DNA from: Clostridium sp.
GTDB lineage: Bacteria; Bacillota; Clostridia; TANB77; CAG-508
Assembly: GCA_052174015.1 (NCBI GenBank)
Contig: JBQMXM010000004.1
Coordinates: 10 to 64,009 of the forward strand
DNA length: 64,000 nucleotides
Reading direction: 5' to 3'
Shown here one piece after another: positions 7,560 to 60,514 of the stretch. A model generated the notes under the pieces. The model made no database searches and was not told where the DNA came from. It saw only the letters and a program-made list of their open reading frames with translations. Positions within the stretch are counted from its first letter, which is position 1. Every line of letters begins with the position of its first letter. A program made the position numbers and the translations under genes.

Positions 7560-7567
7560 ATTACTCC

Positions 7568-8107
7568 TTAATAATTTTCAGCCATTATTTCAAAATATGC
7601 TTTTGGATGTGAGCATACAGGGCATAAGTTTGGTGCTTCTTGTCCATAGTGAATGTGTCCACAATTTCTACATATCCAAACTAATTCTTCTCCTCTTTTA
7701 AACACCATATCATCTTCTATATTTTTTAAGAATTTTAAATATCTTTTTTCATGAGCTGATTCTACTTTTGCAACTCCATCAAATAATTTAGCTATATCTT
7801 CAAATCCTTCTTCTCTAGCTGTTTTAGCAAATTCATCATACATTATATTTACTTCATAATTTTCTCCATTTGCTGCATCTTTTAAATTTTCTGTTGTTGT
7901 TGGTATTGTACCACCATGTAATAATTTAAACCATAATTTAGCATGTTCTTTTTCATTTCTTGATGTTTCTTCAAACACACCTTTTATTTGTTCGTATCCT
8001 TCTTTTTTTGCTTTACTTGCATAGTATAAATATTTTACTGATGCTTGTGATTCTCCTGCAAATGCAGTCATTAAATTTTTCTCTGTTTTACTACCTTTTA
8101 ATTCCAT
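7568..8107 (-). CDS. rbr: Rubrerythrin
   Basis: N-terminal ferritin-like diiron domain (KTEKNLMTAFAGESQA) plus C-terminal rubredoxin-like CRNCG...CPVC. Confidence 0.9.
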   Translation of the reverse strand: MELKGSKTEKNLMTAFAGESQASVKYLYYASKAKKEGYEQIKGVFEETSRNEKEHAKLWFKLLHGGTIPTTTENLKDAANGENYEVNIMYDEFAKTAREEGFEDIAKLFDGVAKVESAHEKRYLKFLKNIEDDMVFKRGEELVWICRNCGHIHYGQEAPNLCPVCSHPKAYFEIMAENY

Positions 8108-8196
8108 AATTTTCTCCTTTTTAATTGATTTACTAAACTATAACAAAAAAAGTTACAGAAGTCAAGTACTGTAACTTTTATTTTTTATATTTTATT

Positions 8197-9561
8197 TTAA
8201 TCTTTTATCTTCCATATACCTTCACTTTGTTTTTCAAGCATTTTTCCATCTAAGTATACTACAGGTCTTAAAAATTGGGCACTCGTTGAAAAACTCACAA
8301 GAGGACGATGACTAACGAGAGTATCACCCCAGACAGAACTAGAACGCACATAACGAACATTAAATTCTGGATCACTCATATTAACAAAAATACAAGGAGA
8401 AGCAAGAAAATATGAATTATCTTTGAATATATAATTCTTTAACTTGGTCTTGTTTTCTTTTACATCTATATCTGGTACTAATTCTTCACTGTATCCTGAA
8501 TTAGAAGTTATAGAATAAAATTCATTATCAAATTTTTTTATATCTTTACCAGTTCCATATTCGACATAATAACCATTTATTGTTGGATATCTTTCTTCTC
8601 TACTTTTTACACCAGGTTTATAAAATATATCCAATAATTTCTTTTCTGCATCCGTAAAGTCTGTATATGCTTCACCTTTCATTATCTTAACAATGTCTTC
8701 CATTGTCATACTTCTTGCACCAGACCCTATTAATATTCTTGTTTGTGCTTCACCGGGCACTTGATAATTTCCTATTTGATAGGTCGTAACAACTTGTTTA
8801 GCACCTTTCCCATATCCATATATACTACATGCTTTATGCAACTCTTCTTCTGCATATAACCAACCTATACCACCTTTTAATGTAAATTTGTTTGCTTCTT
8901 CTCCTCCTGTTACTTCTTTCACTGGTTCTTTTGACATTACCTTTATTTGATTATTATGAATTGATATTACAACCCATTCTTTAGCAGTTTGGTCTATTGT
9001 TACTGTTTGTGTACCATATCCATTACCACTTGTTTTTGCAGTTCCTTTTTGTGAAGTATATGTCAGTTTAGATGTATCTGTAACACCTTTTGTTGGGTTA
9101 TAAATTATTGTATCTCCTACCTTTAAATCCTTTGGTATTGTTGGTGGTGGAGTCGGTGGAGTTGGTGGTGTTGATGGTGGTTGGTACTTAAACCAATCAT
9201 CATATTGTGCTTTAGTTATATTTGTTTTTTGATTATTATAGTATAATATATTGTTTTTAAACTCAAATGTTCCACCAACTTTTTGTTCAAACTCTGTAGC
9301 ATTTGGAGGAGTATTATCTTGTGTATTTAAATCACTTGATAATTTTTTACCATCTAAATAGTGTTCTTTTTCTTCTCTTAACTGTTCTGTTATTGTTGCA
9401 ACTTTTGTATTTTTAGTTAAGTCTATAAATTGATTATTAACCACTAATACTGTTATTATTGTTGCAAGTATCATTAATATCACTATTGTTAAAACTAATG
9501 ATATTAATGTTATTGCATTTCTATTATTTTTTTGTTTTATTATATATTCTTTTGTAATCAT
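8197..9561 (-). CDS. Secreted/surface protein, paralog 1 of a three-member family (prepilin-leader-like N-terminus, conserved core domain, WKIKD C-terminus)
   Basis: N-terminal basic leader then a 25-aa hydrophobic segment (NAITLISLVLTIVILMILA). PT-rich linker (PPSTPPTPPTPPPT). Core GDTIIYNPTKGV...SKLTYTSQKGTAKTSGNGYG...NNQIKVMSKEP...GGIGWLYAEEELHKACSIYGYGKG...SGARSMTMEDIVKIMKGE...TDFTD and C-terminal FLRPVVYLDGKMLEK...WKIKD, shared with ORFs at 56208 and 57800. Hairpin terminator at 8149-8178. Confidence 0.6.
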   Translation of the reverse strand: MITKEYIIKQKNNRNAITLISLVLTIVILMILATIITVLVVNNQFIDLTKNTKVATITEQLREEKEHYLDGKKLSSDLNTQDNTPPNATEFEQKVGGTFEFKNNILYYNNQKTNITKAQYDDWFKYQPPSTPPTPPTPPPTIPKDLKVGDTIIYNPTKGVTDTSKLTYTSQKGTAKTSGNGYGTQTVTIDQTAKEWVVISIHNNQIKVMSKEPVKEVTGGEEANKFTLKGGIGWLYAEEELHKACSIYGYGKGAKQVVTTYQIGNYQVPGEAQTRILIGSGARSMTMEDIVKIMKGEAYTDFTDAEKKLLDIFYKPGVKSREERYPTINGYYVEYGTGKDIKKFDNEFYSITSNSGYSEELVPDIDVKENKTKLKNYIFKDNSYFLASPCIFVNMSDPEFNVRYVRSSSVWGDTLVSHRPLVSFSTSAQFLRPVVYLDGKMLEKQSEGIWKIKD

Positions 9562-9581
9562 ATTTACCTACTTTATATATA

Positions 9582-10571: not shown

Positions 10572-10572
10572 A

Positions 10573-11388
10573 CTATCTTCCTACCCCCTTATAATCTAGA
10601 TAGATTACTTTCATTTGTTTTGTTGATTGTATATTTTTTGAGTTTGTTACTGTATATGTAATTGTATATGTTTTTCCTTTTTCCCATTTATCTATTGATA
10701 CATCTAATTCATATTTAATTTTTGAACTTATCTTTTTATCTTCCTTATCATATGCTTCTACTAATTTTAATGGTTCAAGTACAATTTTACCTTCACTACT
10801 TATTTTAGGTATAATTTCTCCTTTTGCTGTTAAAAATATATCTTCTTTAAGCCAAATAACTGGAGCATTGCCTAGTTTTTCTTCTTCTATATCTTTTCTT
10901 TTTAACTCTCCATTAGATAATGTATATTCATATATCCTCTCACTCCCACCATTATATTTAATCATATATATAAATGGGGCAGAAGTGTTATCTATCTCCA
11001 CTTTTTCATTTTTTAATTCATCTATTTTTTTAAGTTCTTTATTAATATTTAGTACTAATTCTTTTGTCTTTAATTCTGCATGTACATTATTTGTACTTTG
11101 AGTTGCTTTTAAAAGTTCTGTTCCTTTTAATTTATGTAAGTTTTCTTCTCTTTTTTGTATATATGTACTAATATATTGTTTAAGCTCTTCTTTTCTTAAT
11201 TCTTCTTCCTGAGATTTAGTTATTATACCTATTTTTTTAAATATTCTATACTTTTTTTGAGTTGGTACAGTAACATTAAATATATATATACATACTACTA
11301 ATATTAATAATATTATTATACATATATTAACTATCCCTATTTTCTTTTGTTTTTTGTTTGTATCTATTATTGTTTTTTGTTTTTCCAT
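10573..11388 (-). CDS. Membrane-anchored hypothetical protein
   Basis: N-terminal TM helix then a K/E-rich soluble domain. No recognisable motif. Confidence 0.4.
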   Translation of the reverse strand: MEKQKTIIDTNKKQKKIGIVNICIIILLILVVCIYIFNVTVPTQKKYRIFKKIGIITKSQEEELRKEELKQYISTYIQKREENLHKLKGTELLKATQSTNNVHAELKTKELVLNINKELKKIDELKNEKVEIDNTSAPFIYMIKYNGGSERIYEYTLSNGELKRKDIEEEKLGNAPVIWLKEDIFLTAKGEIIPKISSEGKIVLEPLKLVEAYDKEDKKISSKIKYELDVSIDKWEKGKTYTITYTVTNSKNIQSTKQMKVIYLDYKGVGR

Positions 11389-11410
11389 TTATACCTCTTA
11401 ATATTTACTA

Positions 11411-28700: not shown

Positions 28701-29463
28701 CTATATCTTTTGTCTCATTTTCATATACTATTTCAGGGCTTTTTTGTAATATATTTTTTTCTATACCATTTCTATCAAACATATTTAATATTGCTTGCAC
28801 CCTTATTTTTGTAGTATATGCAAGTATTTGTGGATTTTTCTTAATAATTTGTAATCCTAGTTTTTCTTTTGGATTAGTATATAGTAATAATAATTCTTTT
28901 ACTACATTTGCTGTATTTAAATAGAATACTTTTGGACATTTTTTAAGTATCACTTTTTCAATCTCGTATTCTTCTAATACTTTAAATATTTTAGAGATTT
29001 CTGTTGCATCTCCATATGCTAAAATATCCCCATTATTTTTAAAATATTCTAATCCTAATCCTTTTTCTTTAAAAATTTTTAGTATTTTTAATATATTTTC
29101 ATCTTTCCCAACACCTATTACTTCTGGAAATTTTTCTAATATCTGTAATGTTATATCTTTGTTTTTAACTAATGCAGATATTTTTTGTATCCTTACCCTA
29201 TTTGTTCTTTCAAAAATTTCAGGATTTTTTTCTAATAATGATATTGGTAATTCTGATTCTTTAAATTGCTCTATTACATTTTTAACTTTACTAGACTTTA
29301 TATTTAATACTTGTGGATAATTACTAATTAAACTAATTGTTAGCTTTTTTTGTTTAATTATTTCAATTATATCTAAAGCATTTTGTCTATCTTCTAATTC
29401 AATCCCTAACTTTATAATTATTTTATCTAATATATTTTCATATTGATTGACTTTTTTAGTCAT
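25783..29463 (-). CDS. Giant cytoplasmic repeat protein: about 15 mTERF-like Pro-containing helical repeats, E/R/K-rich predicted single helix, Q/N-rich C-terminus
   Basis: No signal peptide. About 33-aa repeats with a conserved Pro (…KNPQILAYTTKIRVQAILNMF…, …KFPEVIGVGKDENILKILKIF…). About 160 aa of EEEKLRQKLEEERLKQKEQEELLRQKLEAEARKK-type sequence, then NLQNSNSVQQ...QLQPQNYTQ. Antisense plus-strand ORFs here are low-complexity artefacts. Confidence 0.6.
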   Translation of the reverse strand: MTKKVNQYENILDKIIIKLGIELEDRQNALDIIEIIKQKKLTISLISNYPQVLNIKSSKVKNVIEQFKESELPISLLEKNPEIFERTNRVRIQKISALVKNKDITLQILEKFPEVIGVGKDENILKILKIFKEKGLGLEYFKNNGDILAYGDATEISKIFKVLEEYEIEKVILKKCPKVFYLNTANVVKELLLLYTNPKEKLGLQIIKKNPQILAYTTKIRVQAILNMFDRNGIEKNILQKSPEIVYENETKDIENIIAILKQLNISKEEISKNSEVLMYDTIELSKLIKKIRYLEEFEDIFKNVLEDNFKLVISIDLNTIIEYIEAVEKEKIDKEYIYKYPQYVLKNTPNNVINVIDIFEKIEDSNYIERNPQILTIQEPNNILKIQTVFVKYGLNKEILENVNVYLNGNAKNIEEIVQEIDDRGLSRNILNNAFILIKGNPENITQILDKLEKEEQQDNGIGKEILEKSSTILTTGNVESIDEVKEFLKSKNLLDNPEVEIPGIIFAKGKADNMEQIYTFLESVGLINELKNSLSLFIKPVSNIQTNLDLLIEYDMLDSVIQNISVLGLSPETLEKRLKFLKYNNEEITVQILKLTQDKFFEKYNTNESDMSKVPKEYLAQVIISSEYSKYLEKEYGIFDDETKEIYNNILEEILEYGIVKKELIYIKADYNYSLIKIKENLKKILYNTSLEKDLQTLDKKDYIYIQVLSILGNKKVSEEEAEKVCRSVIRQEKEIEVNEKYKHKIIIETEEIEPKEKIEEKNQELQNEVVEPKYEYKDEEYKKDLEELGLSDDNIDEEVSEADNKNDSDNLNNIYGLSIENVDNIENPENTKIKDINEDNIEIKEEALEIEETEETEEVEQEKIKVLVEELKEKQIQEEKKINKINKFNNILDNVKEQEEQNFEFDLDNLSNSLKEYTETIHRRKIDEELRKKREEEEKLSKIRQRRQEKELEELRRKNAELEKLRIAKEEELRIKIANEEAKRLEEEEKLRQKLEEERLKQKEQEELLRQKLEAEARKKQEEQEAINLKIKAEAERIAQIEIDKIRQEQEIAKRIEQEAKKIALQKENELKRQLLQEMQIRQEQEEKYRKKLEEEEDDLEKYYRQKSVPNINLEEISTNMQQNIDNLQNSNSVQQLISNMSEQYQNYPKQNNIKPQLQPQNYTQTEEFSRTIDAYYNQERKPFFNLDDYGYILNTVNSEEQQKMQIEMNQLYKMKKNNFYDE

Positions 29464-31744: not shown

Positions 31745-33118
31745 CTATTTTAACTTATTTAAAATATATTCTTCTATTTCACTTATTTTAATTGTTTCTT
31801 GTTGCATACTATCTCTATCTCTAATAGTTACTTCATTATTTTTTAAAGTATTGTCGTCTACTGTAACTACATATGGAGTACCATTTATATCTTGTCTCCT
31901 ATATCTTTTTCCAATACTACCACTTTCGTCATAATCAACTGTAACTATTTTTGCAAGTTCTAAATATAGTTTTTTAGCATATTCTGAATGCTTATTTTTT
32001 AATAATGGTAATACTGCCAACTTATATGGTGCAATTTTAGGATTGAATTTCATAACTATTCTAGTAGTTCCGTCTTCTAATTCTTCTTCATTATATGCTT
32101 CATAAAGTAATGCTAAAGTTGCTCTATCTGCTCCAACTGTTGATTCAACAATATATGGTATGAATTTTTCTTTAGTTTCTTCATCTAAATATTCCATACT
32201 TTTACCAGAATATTCTTGATGTTGTGTTAAATCATAATCTGTTCTATCATGTGTACCATTTATTTCTCCATATCCAAATGGGAATAAATATTCTATATCA
32301 CATGCTGCTTTTGCATAAAAAACTAATTTGGCATGGTCCATAAATCTTAATTTTTCAGTAGGTAAACCAATGTCATTAAAAAACTTTAATGCATAATCTT
32401 TATAAAATTCATAAAGTTTTAAATCTTCTCCCGGTTTACAAAATGTTTGAAATTCCATTTGTTCAAATTCTATTGTTCTAAATGTTAAATTTCCAGGTGT
32501 AACTTCATTTCTAAAAGCTTTACCAATTTGCCCTATACTAAATGGTAATTTTGCTCTTGAACTTCTTAAAACATTTAAATAATTTACATATTCTCCTTGT
32601 GCATTTTCTGGACGTAAATATATAATATTTTTATTTTCTTCAAGAGTACCTCTATATGTTTCAAACATTTGACTAAATTTTCTAACTTTAGTAAAGTCTT
32701 GTCCTCCACAATGTGGACACTTTCCATTATTCTCTTTTATATATTCTTCCATTTCATCATAACTAAGTGCTTCCCCATTTACTGTACCATTAGATAATTT
32801 ATCTATATATTTATCTACTCTTATTCTTGCCTTACATTTCTTACAATCCATTTTAGGGTCATAAAATGATGCGACATGTCCTGATGCTTTCCAAACTCTA
32901 GGATGCATTAATATATTTGCATCTATTTCATATGAATTCATTTGTTCTTGAATAAATCTTTTTCTCCAAGCGTCTTTTAAATTATTTTTTATTCTACTTC
33001 CTAAAGGTCCATAATCCCATGTATTTGCTAATCCTCCATAAATATCTGACCCTGGATAAATATATCCATATTGTTTACAAAAAATTGCCATTTGTTCTAT
33101 ATTTAATTTCTTTTCCAT
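31745..33118 (-). CDS. glyQS: Glycine--tRNA ligase (alpha2 dimeric class II type), copy 1
   Basis: [25 protein letters not shown]-terminus, motif 2 FRNEVTPGNLTFRTIEFEQME, motif 3 VGADRATLALL. Confidence 0.93.
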   Translation of the reverse strand: MEKKLNIEQMAIFCKQYGYIYPGSDIYGGLANTWDYGPLGSRIKNNLKDAWRKRFIQEQMNSYEIDANILMHPRVWKASGHVASFYDPKMDCKKCKARIRVDKYIDKLSNGTVNGEALSYDEMEEYIKENNGKCPHCGGQDFTKVRKFSQMFETYRGTLEENKNIIYLRPENAQGEYVNYLNVLRSSRAKLPFSIGQIGKAFRNEVTPGNLTFRTIEFEQMEFQTFCKPGEDLKLYEFYKDYALKFFNDIGLPTEKLRFMDHAKLVFYAKAACDIEYLFPFGYGEINGTHDRTDYDLTQHQEYSGKSMEYLDEETKEKFIPYIVESTVGADRATLALLYEAYNEEELEDGTTRIVMKFNPKIAPYKLAVLPLLKNKHSEYAKKLYLELAKIVTVDYDESGSIGKRYRRQDINGTPYVVTVDDNTLKNNEVTIRDRDSMQQETIKISEIEEYILNKLK

Positions 33119-33470: not shown

Positions 33471-34847
33471 TTATTGTTTTAAATTATTATTTAAATATTC
33501 TACTAAATTTTTAATTTCTACTCTTTCTTGCTCCATAGTATCTCTATCTCTTACAGTTACTTTTCCATCTTTTTCAGTATCAAAATCTACAGTTACACAA
33601 TATACTGTACCTATTTCATCTTGTCTTCTATATCTTTTTCCAATACTTCCTGTTTCATCATATGTAGTCATAAATTCTTTTTGTAATAAAGTATATACAT
33701 CATCTGCTTGTTCACTTAATTGTTTTGAAAGTGGTAATACAGCAACTTTGTATGGTGCAAGTCTTTTATCTAATTTTAATACGACTCTTGTATCTTCTCC
33801 AACTTTTTCTTCATTATATGCATCTGCTAAAAATGCTAAAAATACTCTGTCACATCCAACTGATGGCTCTATAACATGTGGTATAAATTCTGTACCATCT
33901 AATCTTTTAACTGCCATTGATACTTTTGAATAATTTTGGTGTTGTGTTAAATCATAGTTTGTTCTATTTGCAATTCCCCATAATTCTCCCCAACCAAATG
34001 GAAATAGGTATTCTATATCAATAGTACCTGCACTATAATGTGATAATTCTTCTTTTTCATGTGGTCTTTTTCTAATATTTTTTTCTGTCATACCATGATT
34101 TAATAACCAATCAAAACAATAGTTATGCCAATATTCAAACCAATCTTCTTTAGTTTCTGGATCAAAGAAAAATTCTAATTCCATTTGTTCAAATTCTCTA
34201 GTTCTAAAAATAAAGTTACCTGGTGTTATCTCATTTCTAAAACTTTTACCTATTTGTGCAATACCAAATGGTAATTTTCTTCTTGTTGTTCTTAAAGCAT
34301 TTTTAAAGTTTGTAAAAATACCTTGTGCTGTTTCTGGTCTTAAATATACTTCTGATTTTTTATCTTCTGTTACTCCTTGAAATGTTTTAAACATTAAATT
34401 AAATTTACGTATATTTGTATAGTTTAAAGCTCCACATTTTGGACACACTATATTATTTTCTACTATATAATTATACATTTTTTCATCTGACCAACCATCT
34501 GCAATTCCATTAATTCCATTTTGAAACATCCATTCTTCAATAAGTTTGTCTGCTCTATGTCTTGTTTTACATTCTTTACAATCCATTAATGGGTCTGTAA
34601 AATTTGCTAAATGTCCTGACGCTTCCCATGTTTTAGGATTCATTAATATTGCTGCATCTAAGCCTACATTATATTTACTTTCTTGTACAAACGCTTTTTT
34701 CCATTCAGCTTTTACATTATTTTTTAATTCTAATCCTAGAGGTCCATAATCCCATGTATTTGCAAGCCCACCATAAATATCTGAGCCTGGATATACAAAT
34801 CCTTTTTCTTTTGCAAATATCATTAATTTTTCCATATTTTCTATCAT
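33471..34847 (-). CDS. glyQS: Glycine--tRNA ligase (alpha2 dimeric class II type), copy 2 (divergent paralog)
   Basis: [24 protein letters not shown], motif 2 [21 protein letters not shown], motif 3 [11 protein letters not shown]. Full-length, roughly 55-60% identical to copy 1 by eye. Confidence 0.93.
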
Positions 34848-41744: not shown

Positions 41745-42785
41745 TTAATTAATATATATTATTTCTCCTTCTCTATCTGTTCTAGATATTTCAGGTAATA
41801 ACTGCATTTGTTTTTTCCTTTTTTTATTATTTGTATTTTTAATTATTTCTTCATATCTTTTAAGCACAATCTTACTTGGATGTGAAAAATTATTATTTTT
41901 TCCACATGATATTACAAACGCAGTTATATTAAATTGTTCTAAAAATTGTATTGTACTAGATGAATTTGAACCATGATGTGCAGATTTTAATATATCTATA
42001 TTTCTATTATTATTTTGTTGTTTAATATTCTCTACTATTTTATCTTCTGCTATTTTTTCAATATCTCCTGTATATAATATTTTTAAATTTTTTGATATGT
42101 ATTTTATTTTAGATTTATACATCATCTTATTAAAATTATCTGTTTGTATAACGTCTTTATTCTTAACTTCATTATATTTATACATATTATTATATCTATA
42201 TCTATATCTATTAATATTAAAATAATTATTACTTTTTAATACTTCTACTAATGCTACAACTGAATTATTATTTAATGAATTTTCTGCTATCTGTTGTATT
42301 TCTGGAAACATTATATCTATCTTAACATATTTGCCAATTTTAAACTTATCACCTTTTTTTACATATATTATTTTAACATTTTTCTTTTTTGCACTCTCAA
42401 TTATATTATTGTATTGTTTTGACATCTTTAGCTGTCTTCCAATTATTAAATTTTTAACTTCTAGTTTTTCAATTATATTTTTAGCTCCACCTGAATGGTC
42501 ACTATCAAAATGTGATAACATTAAATAGTCTATTTTAGTAATACCTTTTTTTAATAAGTATGGATAAAGTATTTTTTTACCAGCAGGATATCTAGGACTT
42601 TCTCCTTCTCCACAATCTATAACTATATTCATATTATCTTTTGTAGTTATAACGCTTGAGTCTCCCTGACCTATATCTACAAAAGAAATTGTATTTCTTT
42701 TTAAGTTAAATACTATACTAAATATTTTTAAAACACTGTATATTATTAAAAATATTATTATTATTTTTTTAAATATTTTAAACAA
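41745..42785 (-). CDS. comEC: ComEC-type metallo-beta-lactamase domain protein (C-terminal part of ComEC as a separate ORF)
   Basis: N-terminal TM helix then the MBL motif LMLSHFDSDHSGG and ...VIDCGEG.... Begins 23 nt after, and in a different frame from, the stop of the ComEC N-domain ORF. Confidence 0.75.
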   Translation of the reverse strand: MFKIFKKIIIIFLIIYSVLKIFSIVFNLKRNTISFVDIGQGDSSVITTKDNMNIVIDCGEGESPRYPAGKKILYPYLLKKGITKIDYLMLSHFDSDHSGGAKNIIEKLEVKNLIIGRQLKMSKQYNNIIESAKKKNVKIIYVKKGDKFKIGKYVKIDIMFPEIQQIAENSLNNNSVVALVEVLKSNNYFNINRYRYRYNNMYKYNEVKNKDVIQTDNFNKMMYKSKIKYISKNLKILYTGDIEKIAEDKIVENIKQQNNNRNIDILKSAHHGSNSSSTIQFLEQFNITAFVISCGKNNNFSHPSKIVLKRYEEIIKNTNNKKRKKQMQLLPEISRTDREGEIIYIN

Positions 42786-42808: not shown

Positions 42809-45031
42809 TTAATATATTTTTTGTATTTTTTCTATATAATTCTCTGAGGTATTTTGTATATAATTTTGTATATTTCTTTGTATTTTTAAATATACATATA
42901 TCAAAAATATATAATATATAACTATTATTAATATATTTGGTGTAGATACAGTTAAATTTAAAAAATTTAATTTTTGTAATTTTGAGATTATATTTAATAG
43001 TAATGATATACTCTTATCTATAATCATACATATAACTGTCAAAAAAGCTTCTTTAAATATATATTTATTAACTATACTAAGTATAGGAAAAAACATTAGA
43101 TACATTAATCCAACCACTATAATTATTCCGAAAATTGGTAATAATAATATATTTGCAAATATGAAATTTAAGTTGATTGTTCCAAAATTATACCACATTA
43201 CAGGAAGAATAATTATTGATACTGCTATAGAGTTTAAGATTGCAACAATTGTAATACTAATTATTTTTTCTAATATATATATATTAATTTTTTGTATTTG
43301 AAAAAATATATCTTTCATTCTAACTTTACTATATCTATTAAAATGTTGTATATTACTTCTACTTGTTTCTTTTAATTGATATCTCATTTTTAATCCATTT
43401 AATTTTTCTGTATATATATAGTAATAGTTATATATTTTAATAATGCTATTAATAATATTATTAATGATGTTATTCTTATTCTTCTTGTTTGTGTTATTCT
43501 TAGTGTTAGTATATGTTAATCTAAATAACTTTTTAATATCTATTATTAATATATTTGTATAAATTATACTTATAGCTCCTAAAAATGATAAATACAATCC
43601 TATATCTATAATCTTATATGGTCTTAATATTAAAATTATACATAATATACAAGATAAATAATATTTAAAGTCTGCTTTAATATTTAATAGTTCTAATATA
43701 CTTTTTAAAATCACTATACCACCTGCTCTTAAGACAGATGATGAAAATCCAACTATAACTATAAATGGAGAGATTATTAATATATATATTAAATTTTTAA
43801 TTATTTTACCAACTTTAATCTTGTTTGAAATTGTATCAAGTATCAATATTAAATATGCTAAATGTGTTCCAGATACTGCCAGTATATGATAAATGTTAAC
43901 ATTTTTAAATTCTTCTTTAACCTCTTCATCTATATTATTAGTATCTGCAATTATTAATCCTTGTATTATTGCACTATTTTTAAATCTTTTAGCTATTTCA
44001 CTTTTAAAATCCTCCCTATATCTTAATATTTTTTGTATTATTTTGTGTTTAAACAATATTAATTTTAAAAAAATATTATCAATACTAGAATTATTTTGTT
44101 TATAAATATTATCATTATGATTAATAATCTTAAAATATATTTTTTTAGAATAATTTGCATATCTTAAATTATACCCCTTATAGTTTCTTTTAAAATCGTA
44201 TTTTTCAAGCCTTCCTTGTACTAAATATATTTTACCTAATTCATAATCTTTTTTAGTTTGTATTTCAGAAAATACTGTTGTATAACAATTTTCACCATTA
44301 CTTTTAAGTATCGCTACAATATATTTTTTATTATTTTTTTGTATCCTTTTATCTAAGAAATATACTATGTATTTTCCTTTACCAAGTGTATGGATTTCTT
44401 GTTTCTTATATTTTTGTTTCCATGCTTTAATATCATCTTTCAAATAATTTTGCTCTATATATTCTGTTTCTTCTATATATTGATTATCCTTAATATTATT
44501 ACTCTTGCTCTTACTATTTTTAGGAACAAATCTAATAACTTTTTCTGCTATCTTTTTTTCTTGCAATATATTATCATGTATATACATTTTTTCTATATAC
44601 ATATTGTTTAATGAAAAAATAATAAATGTTAATATACTTACAAAAATTATTATTTTTATTCTTTTCTTATATATTATTTTGTTATTATATTTGTTATTAT
44701 ATTTTAAACTATATTCTATACTTTTCTTACTATACATCACATAAATATATTGTATTAAAATGTGTATTAAAATATATATTAAAATTAAGAATATTATTAA
44801 TAAACATAACTTTATTATGATTAATGTATATTCTATTTTTAAATACTTACTTATTATCTGATTCAATATTTTTGTGTTGGAAGTTTTTAGATATATTTTC
44901 TGTAAGTTAGTTATTTCTGTTATGTATTTTTTACTATATATTTTATCTAATATTTGATTATTAAAAAAAGTTGGGAAATCCATTATTCCCCAACTTATAC
45001 CTAATATTATTCCAATTAATATATTATACAT
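42809..45031 (-). CDS. comEC: ComEC/Rec2 competence membrane channel, N-terminal part (DUF4131 plus competence domain), with extra N-terminal and internal insertions
   Basis: OB-fold region YIVAILKSNGENCYTTVF...LVQGRLEKY. Competence-domain motif HILAVSGTHLAYLIL...SSVLRAGG. Many TM helices. 740 aa with no MBL domain. Confidence 0.75.
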   Translation of the reverse strand: MYNILIGIILGISWGIMDFPTFFNNQILDKIYSKKYITEITNLQKIYLKTSNTKILNQIISKYLKIEYTLIIIKLCLLIIFLILIYILIHILIQYIYVMYSKKSIEYSLKYNNKYNNKIIYKKRIKIIIFVSILTFIIFSLNNMYIEKMYIHDNILQEKKIAEKVIRFVPKNSKSKSNNIKDNQYIEETEYIEQNYLKDDIKAWKQKYKKQEIHTLGKGKYIVYFLDKRIQKNNKKYIVAILKSNGENCYTTVFSEIQTKKDYELGKIYLVQGRLEKYDFKRNYKGYNLRYANYSKKIYFKIINHNDNIYKQNNSSIDNIFLKLILFKHKIIQKILRYREDFKSEIAKRFKNSAIIQGLIIADTNNIDEEVKEEFKNVNIYHILAVSGTHLAYLILILDTISNKIKVGKIIKNLIYILIISPFIVIVGFSSSVLRAGGIVILKSILELLNIKADFKYYLSCILCIILILRPYKIIDIGLYLSFLGAISIIYTNILIIDIKKLFRLTYTNTKNNTNKKNKNNIINNIINSIIKIYNYYYIYTEKLNGLKMRYQLKETSRSNIQHFNRYSKVRMKDIFFQIQKINIYILEKIISITIVAILNSIAVSIIILPVMWYNFGTINLNFIFANILLLPIFGIIIVVGLMYLMFFPILSIVNKYIFKEAFLTVICMIIDKSISLLLNIISKLQKLNFLNLTVSTPNILIIVIYYIFLIYVYLKIQRNIQNYIQNTSENYIEKIQKIY

Positions 45032-50143: not shown

Positions 50144-52120
50144 CTATTTTAAAGTTATTATACATACTCTATCTCTACCTGCTAAATCTTGAATAGTTTC
50201 CACATTCAGATTATTTTTATTACATATATTTTCTATCTCTTTTCTTTGTTTGTACCCTATCTCAAGTAATATATATTTTGACATATCTTTATCTATATCA
50301 TCTTTGTTTACATCTGTATTTTTTAAATACCTATTACCTTTTTCTAAAATTTCTATATAATATTTTAATCCATCTTTTCCACCAAATAGTGCAATATGTG
50401 GTTCTTTTAGAGTATCTAATTCTAAGATTTCATCTTCTCTAATATATGGTGGATTTGCAAATATTATATCAAAATAGTTATAGTATTCTTTTGACAGATT
50501 TTTAAACATATCTGAACATATTAAATGTATATTATTATCCAAACTATATTTAGATATATTTTTTTTAGCTATTTCTAATGCTTTTTTTGATATATCTAAT
50601 GCATATATATTAACATATTCTAATATTTTATCACCATATTTTTTTTCTAATTCTTTTAATACACATATACTAAGTGCTGCACTTCCTGTACATAATTCTA
50701 GTATCTCTATTTTTTCTGTTGTATTTTTATCTATATTTTTTTGAATCTTTTCACATATTTTTTTAATTGTACTATGTATTAATATTTCACTATCATATCT
50801 CGGAATAAGTACATTTTCATCTACATAAAATGAATATCCATATATATATGCTGTGTTTGTAATGTATGCAAGTGGAATATTTGATGCAAATTTCAATAAC
50901 ATTTTTTTAATTTTTTGATAATCTTCTTCTGATATAATTATCTTTTCTGCTACATTTTTTAAATATTCTGTTTTTGAAATACCAGTTACATTTTGTATAA
51001 TTTCCCAAATAGCTTGATATATATATTCTGTGTCTTCCATATCTTCTATATCTTCTATATCTTCTGTATTAAAATTATTAGTTATATTATGCATTTTCGC
51101 TATTGTAAATTTATATAATTCTTCTACTATTTCAAGAATTGTTTTTTGTAATCTTTCAAGTATAATATATTTTCTTTTAACTTTCATATTATTTATACTA
51201 CAAACTCCATATAGTTTTGATGATATATATATTAAATACTCTCCATCTATAAAGTCTGGTATATCTTTTCCATTTAATTTTTGTATATCTTTTTTTAAAA
51301 ATTCTAAATTTGTATCAAGTCCTTTTAAATATGCATCTTTTCTAAATTCTGGTAAATATATTTTAGGCATTTTAGTATTTTCTAATATTTCTGTTTCTGT
51401 AAATATACATCTTTTATTTTCTTGATTTAATACATCTTGATTTAGTTCTTCTAGCTTTATACTATTTTCTTTACTCATATTTGATACAGCTATTCTTTCT
51501 AAATCTGTCATTACAGCTACTGTACCTAATTTTTCTGCAATATCTGAAATTACTTGCCTAATATATGTTCCTGAACTTACATGTAATTCAAATTCTAACT
51601 CATACTTATCTACAAACTTAATATTACATATATCATATATATAGATTTCTTTTTGTTTTTGCTTTGCTTTTTCTTTAGCTAATGAGATATCTTTTCTAGC
51701 TATTTCATATAGTTTTTGCCCATCAATTTTTCTAGATGAAAATATTGGAGTTTTTTGTAATTGTTTTCCTTTCATATTTTCAATTACATTAAATATTTCT
51801 TTTTTAATTTCTGATATATTTTTAACTTTTTTAAAAAAATCTTTATCTTCAAAAATCACTTTCCCTTCTAAATCTAAAGTATCTGTAGTTACTCCTAATT
51901 TCATTCTAGTAATATATTTTTTGTCTTTTTCTATTAAATAGTTTGCAAGTTTGCAACTTTGTCCTAGCAATATTGGTAACACTCCTCGTGCTTTAGGGTC
52001 TAATGTTCCAATATGTCCAGCTTTTGCATTTAATTTTTTAGAAACTATATTAACTGCGTCTCTTGAAGTAACTCCTTCTTCCTTATATATTACTATTATT
52101 CCTGAATTAATCTTTTTCAC
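50144..52120 (-). CDS. truB: Fusion protein: tRNA pseudouridine(55) synthase TruB (N-terminal, about 330 aa) plus HemK/PrmC-family N5-glutamine methyltransferase (C-terminal, about 300 aa)
   Basis: N-terminal AGHIGTLDPKARGVLPILLGQ TruB catalytic motif and PUA-like region. Acidic linker DIEDIEDMEDTEY. C-terminal PLAYITNTAYIYGYSFYVDENVLIPRYDSE, SAM motif ILELCTGSAALS and FANPPYI (NPPY). One uninterrupted 658-aa ORF. Confidence 0.8.
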   Translation of the reverse strand: MKKINSGIIVIYKEEGVTSRDAVNIVSKKLNAKAGHIGTLDPKARGVLPILLGQSCKLANYLIEKDKKYITRMKLGVTTDTLDLEGKVIFEDKDFFKKVKNISEIKKEIFNVIENMKGKQLQKTPIFSSRKIDGQKLYEIARKDISLAKEKAKQKQKEIYIYDICNIKFVDKYELEFELHVSSGTYIRQVISDIAEKLGTVAVMTDLERIAVSNMSKENSIKLEELNQDVLNQENKRCIFTETEILENTKMPKIYLPEFRKDAYLKGLDTNLEFLKKDIQKLNGKDIPDFIDGEYLIYISSKLYGVCSINNMKVKRKYIILERLQKTILEIVEELYKFTIAKMHNITNNFNTEDIEDIEDMEDTEYIYQAIWEIIQNVTGISKTEYLKNVAEKIIISEEDYQKIKKMLLKFASNIPLAYITNTAYIYGYSFYVDENVLIPRYDSEILIHSTIKKICEKIQKNIDKNTTEKIEILELCTGSAALSICVLKELEKKYGDKILEYVNIYALDISKKALEIAKKNISKYSLDNNIHLICSDMFKNLSKEYYNYFDIIFANPPYIREDEILELDTLKEPHIALFGGKDGLKYYIEILEKGNRYLKNTDVNKDDIDKDMSKYILLEIGYKQRKEIENICNKNNLNVETIQDLAGRDRVCIITLK

Positions 52121-54553: not shown

Positions 54554-55549
54554 TTATCTTGTAAGCCCCATTTTCTTTTTCATATCTTCAAATTTTGCTT
54601 TAGCTATTTTTTGAGTATGTATTCTTCCTTTTTCTAATATCTCATCTAATTCTTCACTATTAATTAATTCATAATATCTTTTTTGTATTCTACTTAGTTC
54701 TATAGAAACAACTTCTGCTACCGCTTCTTTAAACTCCTTATATGTACTGTCTTTAAAAGTTTCTTCTGCTTCTTGCATACTTACACCTTTTAATGCAATA
54801 TATATATTTAATAGATTAGATATTCCTGGTTTGTTTTCTTCATCAAAATATACTTTCATCTCTGAATCTGTTTCTGCTTTAAGTATTTTTTTCTTAACTG
54901 TATCTATATCATCTAATATCCTAATAACACTATTTGGATTATCACTTGATTTACTCATTTTCTTAGTTGGATTTTGTAAATCCATAATTTTAGTTCCTTC
55001 TTTAGTTATTAATACATCAGGAATATTAAATGTATTTCCATACAACTTATTAAATCTTAATGCAATATCACGTGTTAATTCAACATGTTGTTTTTGATCT
55101 ACTCCTACTGGAATAATATCTGCATCATATATTAAAATATCTGAAGCCATTAATACTGGATATGTGAATAATCCTGCAGAAAAGTTAGCATTTTTTTGAC
55201 TTTTTTCTTTAAATTGTATCATACGTGATAATTCACCAAAATATGTTGTACATTCAAGTAACCATGAAACATTTGTGTGATATTCATTTTCTGATTGAAG
55301 GAAAATAATATTCTTAGTTGAATCTACTCCTGCTGCTAAATATATTGCAAGTAATTTACGAATATTTTCCTTTAATACTTTTGGATCTTGCTTTATAGTT
55401 ATTGCATGCATATCTGCAATAAATAGGTATGAATTTTCATATTTATCTTGATTTTCAATAACCTGTTTTATAGCTCCTACATAATTTCCAAGAGTTATTT
55501 CTCCTGTTGGTTGTAATCCTGTTAATATTGTCTTGTTTATTTTTTCCAT
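54554..55549 (-). CDS. trpS: Tryptophan--tRNA ligase
   Basis: TGLQPTGEITLGNYVG (HIGH-region equivalent), KMSKS, 331 aa. Confidence 0.95.
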   Translation of the reverse strand: MEKINKTILTGLQPTGEITLGNYVGAIKQVIENQDKYENSYLFIADMHAITIKQDPKVLKENIRKLLAIYLAAGVDSTKNIIFLQSENEYHTNVSWLLECTTYFGELSRMIQFKEKSQKNANFSAGLFTYPVLMASDILIYDADIIPVGVDQKQHVELTRDIALRFNKLYGNTFNIPDVLITKEGTKIMDLQNPTKKMSKSSDNPNSVIRILDDIDTVKKKILKAETDSEMKVYFDEENKPGISNLLNIYIALKGVSMQEAEETFKDSTYKEFKEAVAEVVSIELSRIQKRYYELINSEELDEILEKGRIHTQKIAKAKFEDMKKKMGLTR

Positions 55550-55738: not shown

Positions 55739-56086
55739 ATGAGTAATAAAGTTGGGGTTATTGGTAGTAATAATTGTAAAAATGACTTACTAATGTATTT
55801 AATCAATGAAAAGGGAGTTCAAGATCTTGTACTATTTGGATATCAAGATTTTGAACACAATTCAATATCATTTCTTAAATTAGATGATAGCTTATTATCA
55901 AATGATATTGATACAGCATTATCATATTTAAGACATTGCAAACAAATCTATCTTATTGCAGGAGAATATCCTTTAGAGATAATATGCAAAATCATAGAGT
56001 TTGCAAATACTAATGATGATATTCATTCATTCATTCTAAACAAGGTAAGATACAATAACAATGAATATGTAATGATATCTAAATAA
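55739..56086 (+). CDS. Hypothetical protein (115 aa), the only plus-strand gene in the window
   Basis: Strong RBS taGGAGGtttaacATG, its own promoter, and a GGAGCAATATGCTCC plus T6 terminator. No recognisable family. Confidence 0.6.
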   Translation: MSNKVGVIGSNNCKNDLLMYLINEKGVQDLVLFGYQDFEHNSISFLKLDDSLLSNDIDTALSYLRHCKQIYLIAGEYPLEIICKIIEFANTNDDIHSFILNKVRYNNNEYVMISK

Positions 56087-56089
56087 AAA

Positions 56090-56110
56090 GGAGCATATTG
56101 CTCCTTTTTT
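56090..56110 (+). terminator. Rho-independent terminator of ORF 55739-56086
   Basis: GGAGCATATTGCTCC hairpin followed by TTTTTT. Confidence 0.75.
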
Positions 56111-56207
56111 CATTTACTTTTGTTTTTTACTTTTATTTTTTAACTTTTTTATATACTTTCTTATTTTAGTATTTATTCATTTTATATTATATTATCCTAA
56201 TATTATA

Positions 56208-57572
56208 CTAGTCTTTTATCTTCCACTCTCCATCACTTACTTTTTCTAGCATACTTCCGTCTAAATATACTACAGGTCTTAAGAATCGTGCGACACGTAT
56301 GTCCTGAAAAAGAGAATTAGCATAAGTACTAAATATAGTACTATTATTGATATTTCTTCCACCAACAGCATAAAGATTAAAAAACGCAGTATTAGAGTTT
56401 GCACCTACAAAGCGAGAACAAATCCAATACCAATCACTTTTAAATATATGATTTTTTAATTTTTCCTTATTTGCTTTTACCTTTGAATCTACTACTAATT
56501 CTTTATCATATTCTCCATTTGTATCTGCATGTATGTCATAATGTTCATTATCAAAACTTCGTTTAGTTATACTAATAGCATTTTCAATAAAACTATTTAT
56601 TGTTGGATAATACACTTTTTTACTTGTATATGCCGGGTCTTTGTAATGGTGTTCATCATCAAAATAATTCTTTTCATCATCTGTAAAATCTGTATGTTCT
56701 TCCCCTTTCATTATTTTAACTACATCTTCCATTATAATACTTCTTGCCCCAGAATTATTTAATGTTCTTGTTTTAGCTTCTCCTATATACTTATTACCTA
56801 CTTGATATGTTGTATTAGTAGGTACTGCTCCTTTACCATGTCCATATATACTACAAGCTTTATGTAATTCTTCTTCTGCATATAACCAACCTATTCCACC
56901 ATGTAATGTAAAAATATTATTATCTCCACCTACTACATCACCTAATGGTTCTTTACTCATTACTTTTATTTGATTATTTGCAGTAGATATAACTACCCAC
57001 TTGTTATTATTCGCTTTTGCAGTTACTGTTTGCACGCCATATCCATTACCACATATTTTAGCAGTTCCTTTTTGTGAAGTATATGTCAGTTTAGATTGTT
57101 CACTTACTCCTTTTGTTGGGTCATAAGTTATTATGTCTCCAACTTGTATTCCTGATTCTGATGATTGATTTTGCACTATTAATTTTCTTTCTATTCTACC
57201 ATCATCTATTTCATACTCTACTGTATATCCATTGTTTTTTGTTTTAAATTTTAGTAATTTTCCATTTTCTTCTACATTTATTTCTCCTTCTAAACCTATA
57301 CCTTGTTTATCTAATTCATCTTTAAAAGTAACTTTATTAAATTTTCCATCTTTATTTGTAAAACTTGCACTATATGCTGTCATTATTCTGTCTTTTTCTT
57401 GTGCTATTTCTTGCTCTTGCTTACTTTCTCTTGACTTAAATATTAATCCATTTTGCCCAAGTGCTAAACTAAGTGCTACTCCTGCAAGTATTAGTAATAC
57501 TATTATTGTAAGTACTAATGCAATTAATGTTATACCATTATTTTTGTTTGTATTTTTCTTACATTTTTTCAT
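56208..57572 (-). CDS. Secreted/surface protein paralog 2 (prepilin-like leader MKKCKKNTNKNNG|ITLIALV..., conserved core, WKIKD C-terminus)
   Basis: Start moved to the ATG preceded by the AAAGGGGA RBS; the ORF-track extension MISKKYIDTINYIERGLQ is a translation of the RBS region. Short basic leader ending in Gly, then a 21-aa hydrophobic stretch ITLIALVLTIIVLLILAGVAL. Core GDIITYDPTKGV...SKLTYTSQKGTAKICGNGYG...NNQIKVMSKEP...GGIGWLYAEEELHKACSIYGHGKG...SGARSIIMEDVVKIMKGEEHTDFTD. C-terminus FLRPVVYLDGSMLEK...WKIKD. Confidence 0.65.
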   Translation of the reverse strand: MKKCKKNTNKNNGITLIALVLTIIVLLILAGVALSLALGQNGLIFKSRESKQEQEIAQEKDRIMTAYSASFTNKDGKFNKVTFKDELDKQGIGLEGEINVEENGKLLKFKTKNNGYTVEYEIDDGRIERKLIVQNQSSESGIQVGDIITYDPTKGVSEQSKLTYTSQKGTAKICGNGYGVQTVTAKANNNKWVVISTANNQIKVMSKEPLGDVVGGDNNIFTLHGGIGWLYAEEELHKACSIYGHGKGAVPTNTTYQVGNKYIGEAKTRTLNNSGARSIIMEDVVKIMKGEEHTDFTDDEKNYFDDEHHYKDPAYTSKKVYYPTINSFIENAISITKRSFDNEHYDIHADTNGEYDKELVVDSKVKANKEKLKNHIFKSDWYWICSRFVGANSNTAFFNLYAVGGRNINNSTIFSTYANSLFQDIRVARFLRPVVYLDGSMLEKVSDGEWKIKD

Positions 57573-57799
57573 TTGTAATCCCCTTTCAATATAATTAATG
57601 GTATCAATATATTTTTTAGATATCAATATTTATATTATATATTATTATCTTTTTAGAAAAATGTAACACAAATATAATAATAACAGAAACATAATAAAAC
57701 TCATATCAATTATTAAATTGTTATGAGTTTTTACCTTTTATTTTAATTTTTTATATACTTTTTTATTTTAATATTTATTCATTTTATTATTATATTATA

Positions 57800-59164
57800 C
57801 TAGTCTTTTATCTTCCATTTTCCTTCACCTGTTTTTTCTAGCATACTTGGATTTAAATATACTACTGGTCTCAATAATGCATTAGCAGATGCTATTGGAG
57901 AATCAGAACCATAATCACCAATATAAACCATATTGCCATTGATATAGCTTGAATTCACAGCACGTATATAAAAATATACATCACCTGTGTTATAATTAAG
58001 CGGAGTACGAGAACTAATATAATAATTATACATATTATATATATGATTCTTTAACTTTTCCTTATTTTGTTTAATTTTTGAATCTGTTACCAATTCTTTA
58101 TCATAATTTGCTAGATCTATATGATACCATTTATTATCAAATATTTTCTTAATTCTACTACTTCCAACTAGTTCCGTGCTACTTACTGTTGGATAAAATA
58201 CCTCTCGGCTTTTTTTAGCTGGATCCATATATTCAGAATAGAATCCTTTCTTTTCTTCATCTGTAAAGTCTGTATGTTCTTCCCCCTTCATTATTTTAAC
58301 TATATCTTCCATTGTCATACTTCTTGCACCAGAACCTGTTAATGTTCTTGATTGTGCTTCTCCTGTTTCCTCATTACCTACTTTATATGTTGTGTTTGTT
58401 TTTATTGTTCCTTTTCCATGTCCATATACGCTACACGCTTTATGTAATTCTTCTTCTGCATATAACCACCCTATTCCTCCTTTAAATGAGAATTGATTAT
58501 TATTTCCACCTGAGACTTCACCTATAGGTTCTTTTATCATTACTTTTATTTGATTATTTGCAGTAGATAATACTATCCATTCATTTTGATTTTCTTTAGC
58601 TTTTACTGTTTGTTCTCCATATCCATTACCACCTGTACTTGGTGTTCCTAATTGGCTTTTGTATGTAAGCTTAGATTGGTCAGTAACACCTTTTGTCGGG
58701 TCATAAGTTATTATGTCTCCAACTTGTATTCCTAATTCTGCCGAATGATTTTGCCCTATTGATTTTCTTTTTAGTATACCCTTATCTATTTCATATTCTA
58801 CTGTATATCCTGTGTGGTTTGTTACAAGTTCTATTTTAAGTGGATTATCAGATATTGTTTTTAATTTATCCTTATCAAAATTTACTCCCGATTTTCTTAA
58901 TTCTTGTTCAAAGGTACCTTTTTCAAATTTTCCTTTATCTTTTGCAAAACTTGCTCCATATGCTGTCATTATTCTGTCTTTTTCTTGTGCTATCTCTTGC
59001 TCTTGCTGACTTTCTCTTGACTTAAAAATTAATCCATTTTGCCCAAGTGCTAAACTAAGTGCTACTCCTGCAAGTATAAGTAGTACTATTATAGTAAGTA
59101 CTAACGCAATTAATGTTATACCATTATTTTTATTATTATTTTGCTTTTTATTACATTTTTTCAT
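57800..59164 (-). CDS. Secreted/surface protein paralog 3 (tandem duplicate of paralog 2)
   Basis: First ~60 aa, the 5'UTR and the 3' flank are nearly identical to paralog 2. Leader MKKCNKKQNNNKNNG|ITLIALV.... Divergent middle. Same core and C-terminus (LLRPVVYLNPSMLEK...WKIKD). Confidence 0.65.
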   Translation of the reverse strand: MKKCNKKQNNNKNNGITLIALVLTIIVLLILAGVALSLALGQNGLIFKSRESQQEQEIAQEKDRIMTAYGASFAKDKGKFEKGTFEQELRKSGVNFDKDKLKTISDNPLKIELVTNHTGYTVEYEIDKGILKRKSIGQNHSAELGIQVGDIITYDPTKGVTDQSKLTYKSQLGTPSTGGNGYGEQTVKAKENQNEWIVLSTANNQIKVMIKEPIGEVSGGNNNQFSFKGGIGWLYAEEELHKACSVYGHGKGTIKTNTTYKVGNEETGEAQSRTLTGSGARSMTMEDIVKIMKGEEHTDFTDEEKKGFYSEYMDPAKKSREVFYPTVSSTELVGSSRIKKIFDNKWYHIDLANYDKELVTDSKIKQNKEKLKNHIYNMYNYYISSRTPLNYNTGDVYFYIRAVNSSYINGNMVYIGDYGSDSPIASANALLRPVVYLNPSMLEKTGEGKWKIKD

Positions 59165-59356
59165 TTGTAATCCCCTTTCAATATAATTAATGGTATCAAT
59201 ATATTTTTTAGATATCAATATTTGTATTATATATTATTATTTTTTTAGAAAATTGTAATAGAAATATAATAAAACTCATAACAATTATTAAATTGTTATG
59301 AGTTTTTACTTTTTATTTAATTTTTTAATTTTATAATATATTTCATATTTTAATAT

Positions 59357-60514
59357 CTATTTAACTAAATTAGTTACTTCTTTGTATAAGCTTGTATTTT
59401 GTAATCTTTTTCCTACTACATCTAATAATATTGATAAATCTTGTGGTTTACTTATTTTTTTAGCTTTTGATTTATCTGCAGTTATTTCTGCTACATTTCC
59501 TTTAACATTATATTTTGTTTTTGACTCTATTACTATATTTATAAAATCTGAATTAAGGTTTATATTTAATCCTTTAATCCTATTTTTAAAGTCTAATTTT
59601 GCTTTCATTTCTATATCTACTGTAGGTAATGTATCTACTTTTTTATCTATTTTTTCTTTGTCTTTTTTCTTTTGTTCTGCAGTTCTTGGTTTTACATTTA
59701 TTTCATTAACTCTTTTTTTAGCGTCTTCAATTCCTTTTTTAACTTGAGCTTCATTTAATTCAAAGAAATCATAATCCTTATTTGCTTGTACTTTTTCTAA
59801 TAGTCGTATATATGTTCTTATAACATCTTTTTGTAATTCATTATTATCTTTAGCTTCGTTTTCTAAATCTAATCCTATTTTCATTAAATCTCTTAAACTT
59901 GAATTAAATTTAATTTCATTTAATGTTGAACCTTTAAATTTCTTTTCTAATTCTAATGATATTTTTTTAATTTCTTTATGTTTTTTTGACATCTTGTTAA
60001 TATCTTGATTGATTATATCAATATATGGTACTATTTTTTGTATATCTTGTTTTTGAAGTACTTTTGAAATATCTGTAATATATGTTAAATTACTATCTCC
60101 ATATAGTCTTAATAATCCTTCTTTTTCTTTTAAATTAGCATAATGTTCTACTTTTAATAATTGTTCATTTTCTTTTTTTACATCTAAACTAACACTATTT
60201 TTATCATTTTTTTGCATTATTTTAGTATTTATAGTAAGTTTGTTAATTATATCATCAATTGGTTTTGCTTGTGTTTCTGGTAACCCTAAAACTTTTTCAA
60301 TTTTAGCATCATATACTTTTAATGTTGTTTCTGTTTCTAATGTTTCTGACTTTCCTGTTTCAACTAAGATAGTTGATATTTTTTTGATAGGTGACATAAA
60401 TAATAGTTTTGTTTTTCTATATGTTAAAGCAAATGCCGCTATTAATATAACTAATATTATTGTTACTATAGTTATTATTTTCTTATTATTTTTTAATTTT
60501 TCTTTTAATGCCAT
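59357..60514 (-). CDS. Membrane-anchored hypothetical protein
   Basis: N-terminal TM helix, K/E-rich soluble domain, no recognisable motif. Confidence 0.4.
   Translation of the reverse strand: MALKEKLKNNKKIITIVTIILVILIAAFALTYRKTKLLFMSPIKKISTILVETGKSETLETETTLKVYDAKIEKVLGLPETQAKPIDDIINKLTINTKIMQKNDKNSVSLDVKKENEQLLKVEHYANLKEKEGLLRLYGDSNLTYITDISKVLQKQDIQKIVPYIDIINQDINKMSKKHKEIKKISLELEKKFKGSTLNEIKFNSSLRDLMKIGLDLENEAKDNNELQKDVIRTYIRLLEKVQANKDYDFFELNEAQVKKGIEDAKKRVNEINVKPRTAEQKKKDKEKIDKKVDTLPTVDIEMKAKLDFKNRIKGLNINLNSDFINIVIESKTKYNVKGNVAEITADKSKAKKISKPQDLSILLDVVGKRLQNTSLYKEVTNLVK

Follow-up and report, generated by a model that had tools for sequence, protein, structure and literature searches.

The window analysed here is a 64-kb stretch of a metagenome-assembled genome (MAG) of Clostridium sp. 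(contig JBQMXM010000004.1), in which three paralogous open reading frames (ORFs) lie on the minus strand, copies 1 and 2 as a tandem pair and copy 3 at a distance from them (Table 1). Counted from ATG starts preceded by AAGAGGA, a ribosome-binding site, each copy encodes 454 amino acids, and the three 454-residue models are identical to the NCBI proteins P0001, P0004 and P0021 (MAG: Clostridium sp., with ACTTGJ locus tags); copy 3 is labeled "type II secretion system protein" at NCBI. Amino acid identity is 63% between copies 1 and 2 and 47% between copies 1 and 3, and the E-values of these relationships (5e-164 and 4e-96) exclude chance by far. A preliminary description of this DNA had reported three paralogs with a conserved core and an invariant C-terminus (LRPVVYL..MLEK..G.WKIKD), and pairwise comparison bears out both the genes and their shared sequence. 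In total, 2,752 database proteins are homologous at E<=1e-3, and the source MAG itself holds about 14 family genes, 10 of which have ACTTGJ locus tags. Across 52 diverse members, a weak N_methyl match is the sole domain recognized by Pfam or NCBIfam. The three genes probably belong to a large unannotated surface-protein family of uncultured low-GC Clostridia and their relatives. With moderate confidence, we propose that these proteins combine a pilin-like carrier with a C-type-lectin-fold (CLec) binding domain, that the combination has its origin in the type of protein targeted by diversity-generating retroelements (DGRs), and that it persists in this genome as a frozen repertoire of paralogs.

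An AlphaFold2 model built on an alignment of 52 sequences has a mean pLDDT of 87.4, with values above 95 for residues 140-454, and is divided into two modules. The C-terminal module is predicted to be an enlarged CLec-fold domain of about 315 amino acids, and weaker fold matches include the C-terminal domain of Legionella Lcl, PvdO, TvpA, TaqVP and many canonical C-type lectin domains. At the sequence level, neither the FGE-sulfatase, DUF1566, Fib_succ_major and Lectin_C profiles (at E<=0.1 in the 52 members) nor NCBIfam give a match, and the CLec relationship is therefore visible at the level of the fold only; an NCBIfam match to FliL was rejected as an artefact of the transmembrane helix. 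The core of about 180 residues, previously described as unassignable, does lack any Pfam or NCBIfam domain in the 52 members, but at the fold level it falls within this enlarged C-type-lectin-like domain, of which it is the scaffold half in the model. Residues 383-430, the variable stretch discussed below, are located in the C-terminal strands of the CLec domain, as is characteristic of DGR targets, and probably form its binding face. We propose an adhesin or ligand-binding role for the proteins of this family.

The relationship to DGRs is seen most directly in homologs, whose loci are designated here by L numbers. Downstream of the gene of P0060, a protein 31% identical to copy 1, come a 151-amino acid MutS_I-domain ORF and bAvd, then a non-coding repeat and the gene of a reverse transcriptase (RT) of the RVT_1 type; the gene order in L002, L003 and L004 is likewise target, MutS_I, bAvd, template repeat (TR) and RT. 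The 3' end of the P0060 gene, its variable repeat (VR), can be aligned with the TR over 172 nt with 30 mismatches, 26 of them at TR adenines. As the concentration of mismatches at template adenines is the hallmark of DGRs, this locus is identified as one. The same bias is found across the homolog loci, with 26 of 30 mismatches at TR adenines in L002, L003 and L004, 19 of 24 in L005 (also a 172-nt pair), 16 of 18 in L034 and 26 of 26 in L088. When the scan for TR/VR pairs was relaxed (at least 65% A or T mismatches over at least 40 nt), chance matches dominated the AT-rich DNA, and beyond the pairs of the strict scan L005 alone stood out. In two gut subgroups, identity between strains is 47-53% in the VR versus 82-86% outside it, with a checkerboard of fixed and variable positions. 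These mutation patterns, read from sequence, establish the modeled C-terminal face of the CLec domain as the substrate of DGR mutagenesis in gut relatives.

RTs of this clade are numerous and form more than 120 clusters at >=71% identity in the protein database, and at several further loci a MutS_I-like remnant stands alone downstream of a family gene. The cassettes in L002 (11381-13460), L088 (5583-8088) and L091 (5567-8087) contain one or two MutS_I-domain ORFs of 135-151 amino acids beside bAvd and RT. L088 has three tandem family genes, and the live target is solely the one that adjoins the cassette. The next gene has drifted: its identity with the TR is 64.6%, and its mismatches involve all four bases. 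L088 thus represents an intermediate state, in which one live target and a drifted paralog share a tandem array. In several species, family genes are also found between housekeeping mutS and mutL-miaA (L085, L087, L001 and L034).

The N-terminal module of the window proteins resembles a type IV pilin. A motif composed of a [KN]-rich leader, Gly or Ala, and then ITLIALVLTIIVLLILAG is found among the window ORFs in exactly the three copies, and its string is absent from the searchable literature. The leader of copy 1 reads MKKCKKNTNKNNG up to the putative cleavage junction, which is followed by Ile; in copy 2 the sequence ...NNKNNG precedes Ile, while copy 3 has Ala at position -1. Such short, basic, hydrophilic leaders with Gly at -1 are those of class III signals, and among 73 distinct N-termini of the family this position is Gly in 66, Ala in 6 and Gln in 1. 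Directly after the putative cleavage site comes a hydrophobic stretch of about 21 residues, ITLIALVLTIIVLLILAGVAL, which is near-invariant throughout the family (consensus of the helix ITLIALVITIIVLLILAG, with Ala replacing Glu at +5). In the AlphaFold2 model this segment, alpha1N, is helical (helix 12-69), and the module has the pilin fold, a long N-terminal helix packed on an antiparallel beta-sheet. Additionally, N_methyl matches 32 of the 52 family members at E<=0.1 (best E-value 9.3e-5).

Several observations weigh against assigning this module to the type IV pilins. Glu is never found at +5, where 69 of the 73 N-termini have Ala, 3 have Ser and 1 has Thr, and the canonical Phe or Met at +1 is replaced by Ile in 71 and by Val in 2. 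The Pfam N_methyl model (PF07963, IPR012902) gives the window copies 14.2, 15.6 and 15.1 bits against a cut-off of 21.2, so that of the prepilin-like N-terminus proposed earlier a resemblance stands (also in the Gly or Ala at -1 of 72 of the 73 N-termini), and formal membership in the domain family does not. T2SSE, T2SSF and Peptidase_A24 were not found in Pfam scans of 40 minus-strand window ORFs of at least 120 amino acids, which agrees with the earlier remark that pilB, pilC and pilD are missing from the window; the scans passed over a few ORFs, such as 6900-7559, 7568-8107, 9582-10571 and 54554-55549, and the family genes were scanned separately. A tblastn search of about 90 related loci with a PilB/GspE consensus gave no PilB-type ATPase, a weak negative, and Pfam annotation of the subset of homolog loci with retrieved encoding contigs gave no pilus assembly genes either. 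Moreover, the N-terminus is found on dozens of genes per genome, far above the normal set of pilins.

Together, these observations are the case for regarding the family as ordinary type II membrane proteins with an uncleaved signal anchor and an ectodomain of the lectin fold, in which the likeness to pilins would be superficial and neither a prepilin peptidase nor a filament would be involved. We consider this explanation possible, though not probable. The hydrophobic helix is near-invariant among proteins that are less than 30% identical elsewhere, also across orders, and the residue at -1 is kept as Gly or Ala almost without exception, whereas other signal-anchored proteins of the window (59357-60514 and 10573-11388) have unrelated hydrophobic segments. 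Furthermore, a profile search of PDB sequences gives matches that are weak but that all fall on type IV pilin N-termini. Surface display through a pilin-like module is the interpretation that we propose. Cleavage by a prepilin peptidase and a place for the protein on the tip of type IV filaments are more speculative and are put forward because Gly or Ala is kept at -1, the helix is near-invariant, Glu5 is lacking as in GspK, and the architecture is that of modular pilins.

The same N-terminal module heads other proteins as well. L069 has eight tandem genes of this kind (3827-12491; 257-388 amino acids), and further examples are seen in L020, L033, L036 and L049 near 6025, including four 88-amino acid ORFs in one MAG. 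A search with a 51-amino acid N-terminal consensus gave 2,767 matches, the best 120 of which are all 49-89 amino acids in length, some of them on contigs of more than 100 kb; these short proteins may be stand-alone modules or pseudogene fragments. ComEC, encoded in the window, hints at competence (Com) type IV filament machinery elsewhere in the genome. A pilus cluster of TANB77 (PMC11680825) was considered as a link to the motif and rejected, as that cluster is of the Tad type.

In the window copies, the counterpart of the DGR-targeted stretch can be located by homology. The VR of P0060 aligns to residues 383-440 of copy 1, and this stretch includes the least conserved part among the paralogs of the window's clade. 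Between the window copies, amino acid identity is 69-75% in the CLec core, 20-22% in the VR-equivalent and 75-83% in the C-terminal tail. Template codons that bear adenine correspond to columns of lower conservation than do adenine-free codons, and the difference holds within the VR (0.25 versus 0.375, p=0.004), but it may be equally well explained by the exposure of the residues. Adenine on the coding strand makes up 22-32% of the VR-equivalent in copy 1, 29-31% in copy 2 and 18-19% in copy 3, compared with 43-44% gene-wide and 17-19% in proven VRs. As a trace of past mutagenesis this depletion is weakened by the fact that it may stem in part from the amino acid composition of beta-strands.

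The copies themselves are probably fixed, germline-encoded variants and not live DGR targets, a reading that follows, at the level of sequence, from two observations: the window contains no parts of a retroelement, and copy 2 keeps its variable stretch stable from one strain to another. In the 64 kb, tblastn and Pfam scans found no ORF of the RT, Avd or MutS-like kind, and none of the three 3' ends recurs as a TR-like copy. Between copy 2 and P0241, a 98% identical ortholog from an ENA metagenome, there are seven substitutions and a one-residue insertion; with a single substitution falling within the 48-residue VR-equivalent, this stretch does not show the hypervariability of a DGR target. The closest relatives (L084-L087, from oral and other metagenomes) are located in housekeeping contexts, often as tandem arrays, and are not accompanied by cassettes. 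One of them, P0017 of L087 (ERR589697, a human oral metagenome), is 44% identical to the window genes, and because of this relative the lineage of the window may be oral rather than intestinal.

Two features of the data weaken the case for the frozen state: the absence of RT, Avd and TR concerns one contig of the MAG, so that a DGR acting in trans could sit elsewhere, and the stability between strains is drawn from one ortholog pair, of copy 2 only. At least one of the three genes might be a live target, mutagenized by a retroelement at a distant site, with copy 3 as the best candidate, since its adenine depletion and raised GC content resemble those of proven VRs. Members of the family are proven DGR targets, and separation from the cassette appears to have parallels: in L034 the TR adjoins the target and there is no RT within 6 kb (tblastn with the L002 RT as the query), and in L001 and L065 the VR is hypervariable between strains, yet no cassette is present within 8-10 kb. 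Nevertheless, we judge a live target in the window to be improbable. Beyond the missing retroelement, the stable copy 2 and the relatives that lack cassettes, the three VR-equivalents are about 51-56% identical in DNA sequence and therefore cannot share one template, and the 3' flanks are plain AT-rich terminators instead of GC-rich elements like the initiation of mutagenic homing (IMH) sequence. An origin in phage, for instance as a receptor-binding protein, was excluded, given that no relative of the family was found in 2.9 million viral contigs and that the genes reside in housekeeping contexts.

According to the mechanism that we envisage, an ancestral DGR-type target would have been duplicated and would have diverged into the roughly 14 paralogs of the MAG, including the tandem pair, so that diversity of the binding site would be stored as a germline repertoire of paralogs instead of being generated by ongoing mutagenesis. 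The pilin-like module would display the CLec domain on the cell surface, where residues ~383-430 would bind ligands, and within a type IV filament the protein might possibly serve as a tip subunit that lacks E5.

The tandem pair consists of two directly oriented units of about 1,590 bp, each comprising an upstream hairpin, the 5' untranslated region (UTR) with the ribosome-binding site, the gene and the 3' flank. The preliminary description spoke of a near-perfect tandem repeat with a divergent middle. The tandem pair, including its 5' UTR and 3' flank, is real, but only about 230 nt are identical at 95-96%; outside this segment, 60-nt windows show anything between 48 and 93% identity of the units, with 76-80% in the 3' flank. 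Instead of a single divergent middle there are two blocks, one in the beta-sheet part of the pilin-like module and the other, which is the stronger, at residues ~383-430 before the tail. The possibility that the pair is an artefact of assembly was ruled out, since the copies are too divergent for this and copy 2 has an independent ortholog in a metagenome. Every copy has a hairpin terminator of its own, and each paralog is probably an independent transcription unit.

It had also been suggested that recombination drives surface variation. On this reading, the tandem and dispersed copies would exchange their interiors by recombination or gene conversion, with the conserved 5' and 3' ends as anchors. 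The sharp boundaries of the 5' block and a 3' tail of 76-83% identity around divergent interiors would fit this suggestion, as would the large number of paralogs per genome and the synonymous differences between copies 1 and 2, in that 11% of the codons for identical amino acids differ in the 5' segment versus 22% in the core. However, the conserved ends are the parts under the strongest protein-level constraint, family-wide and across orders, so recombination is not needed to explain their conservation; the hypervariable stretch is homologous to the DGR VR of relatives and is stable in the single strain comparison; comparison of copy 2 with its 98% ortholog reveals no mosaic exchange; and neither inverted repeats nor genes for an invertase or recombinase were noticed at the locus. 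This explanation is accordingly the one to which we give the least credence, and the homogenized 5' end is the only hint of gene conversion in these sequences.

Table 1. Positions of the family genes, their modules and the associated repeats and hairpins in the 64-kb window (VR, variable repeat).
Feature	Position	Strand	Remarks
Copy 1	56208..57572	-	ACTTGJ_01880; pilin-like module, residues 1-135; CLec-fold domain, residues ~140-454
Copy 1, pilin-like module	57168..57572	-	Basic leader MKKCKKNTNKNNG, hydrophobic alpha1N ITLIALVLTIIVLLILAGVALSLA, alpha1C, 4-stranded beta-sheet
Copy 1, VR-equivalent	56283..56426	-	Residues 383-430; homologous to the P0060 VR; 21% amino acid identity to copy 2 versus 75% in the core
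Copy 2	57800..59164	-	ACTTGJ_01885; tandem partner of copy 1; 98% ortholog P0241
Copy 2, VR-equivalent	57875..58018	-	Residues 383-430; holds 1 of the 8 positions that differ from the 98% ortholog
Copy 3	8197..9561	-	Dispersed paralog; Ala at -1
Copy 3, VR-equivalent	8272..8415	-	Strongest adenine depletion, 18-19% A; 38-43% GC
Tandem duplication	56136..59372	-	Two units; direct-repeat families D1-D6, D8 and D9
Homogenized 5' segment (end of 5' UTR, leader, alpha1)	57384..57617	-	95-96% identity to the copy 2 counterpart at ~58976-59209
Intrinsic terminator hairpin downstream of copy 1	56085..56109	-	
AT-rich hairpin between copies 2 and 1	57700..57735	-	Duplicate at 59271-59306, upstream of copy 2

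The surroundings of the family genes are those of a housekeeping stretch of a Firmicute chromosome, with a GC content of 23.8% and annotations that include PolC, UppS, Frr, CdsA, Obg, LexA, MreB, PNPase, ComEC and several aminoacyl-tRNA synthetases. All window ORFs of at least 120 amino acids with a family match are on the minus strand, an extreme co-orientation across 64 kb. Directly upstream of the tandem pair, the ORF at 59357-60514 (minus strand, 385 amino acids) is without a match in Pfam or NCBIfam and carries an ordinary membrane anchor at its N-terminus, and the 1,226-amino acid ORF at 25783-29463 (minus strand) likewise has no match in these databases. Tandem glycine--tRNA ligase paralogs with 51% identity are encoded at 31745-33118 and 33471-34847 (minus strand); the scores of both exceed the NCBIfam equivalog cut-off by a wide margin, and two such enzymes are unusual in a small low-GC genome. 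The 658-amino acid ORF at 50144-52120 (minus strand) is a fusion of the tRNA pseudouridine synthase TruB with a PrmC/MTS-type methyltransferase domain. ComEC is apparently split on the minus strand into a 740-amino acid channel part (42809-45031) and a separate 346-amino acid ORF of the metallo-beta-lactamase fold (41745-42785).

Modular type IV pilins have been described before, as have DGR targets with a CLec fold, and the family shares features with each. As in the DGR variable proteins with a CLec domain (Bordetella phage Mtd, Treponema denticola TvpA, Thermus TaqVP and the Legionella LdtA/DUF1566 type), variable residues are placed at the extreme C-terminus of the ligand-binding domain and are followed by a conserved tail, and homologs of the window genes have adenine-specific VR/TR pairs and cassettes with RT and bAvd. 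Unlike these systems, the window genes are not accompanied by a TR or RT in the 64 kb, and copy 2 is stable from strain to strain; the CLec domain of the family is about twice the usual size and has no Pfam match of the CLec type, and it is borne by a pilin-like carrier in place of a lipoprotein signal or phage-tail module. The N-terminal domain of the Thomasclavelia ramosa IgA peptidase (PDB 9qa6), which in that enzyme is fused to a metallopeptidase and binds structural zinc, has no detectable sequence similarity to the family.

Modular type IV pilins, as defined for Streptococcus sanguinis PilB (with a vWA module) and PilC (with a lectin module), GspK and CofB (PMC8179133), likewise consist of a small pilin module, a short linker and a bulky, predicted ligand-binding module, the bulk of which implies a position at the tip. 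The family differs from them in having Ile at +1 and Ala at +5, with N_methyl below threshold in the window copies, and in having as its effector module a DGR-type CLec domain. Its genes lie outside pilus operons in at least 10 copies per genome. In the searchable literature, the combination of a pilin with a DGR-type CLec domain has one passing mention, in which a "GspG-type pilin" domain is listed among rare domains of DGR targets (PMC11661182). The concept of a retroelement that diversifies a ligand-binding pilus tip component in gut bacteria is shared with the type V pilus tip adhesins of Bacteroides, which are diversified by a DGR (bioRxiv 10.1101/2024.11.15.621889). Those adhesins belong to a different phylum and to type V pili, in contrast to the type IV-like N-terminus of the family, and the report on them does not mention Firmicutes or type IV pili. 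A tentative and, in our estimation, rather doubtful extension is that uncultured low-GC Clostridia display dozens of Glu5-less pilin-module proteins on a type IV filament or pseudopilus that serves them all, that this family would be the first type IV pilin tip adhesin diversified by a DGR, and that about 14 frozen germline alleles would have replaced retroelement diversification in the lineage of the window.

With these results, a family of more than 2,700 members from gut and oral metagenomes, for which no domain model existed beyond its N-terminal motif, has a structural and evolutionary identity, and a conserved, abundant class of surface antigens would be flagged in uncultured host-associated Clostridia. 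The proposed architecture links modular type IV pilins with DGR-diversified C-type-lectin binding domains. It also offers a natural comparison, on one binding scaffold, of retroelement-driven diversification in gut relatives with paralog-encoded diversification in the genome of the window. If the pilin-like module is processed, DGR-targeted adhesins, described for the type V pili of Bacteroides, would be extended to Firmicutes and their type IV filaments. If frozen germline alleles have indeed replaced retroelement diversification in the lineage of the window, bacteria would have their own version of the choice between multigene repertoires and hypermutation.

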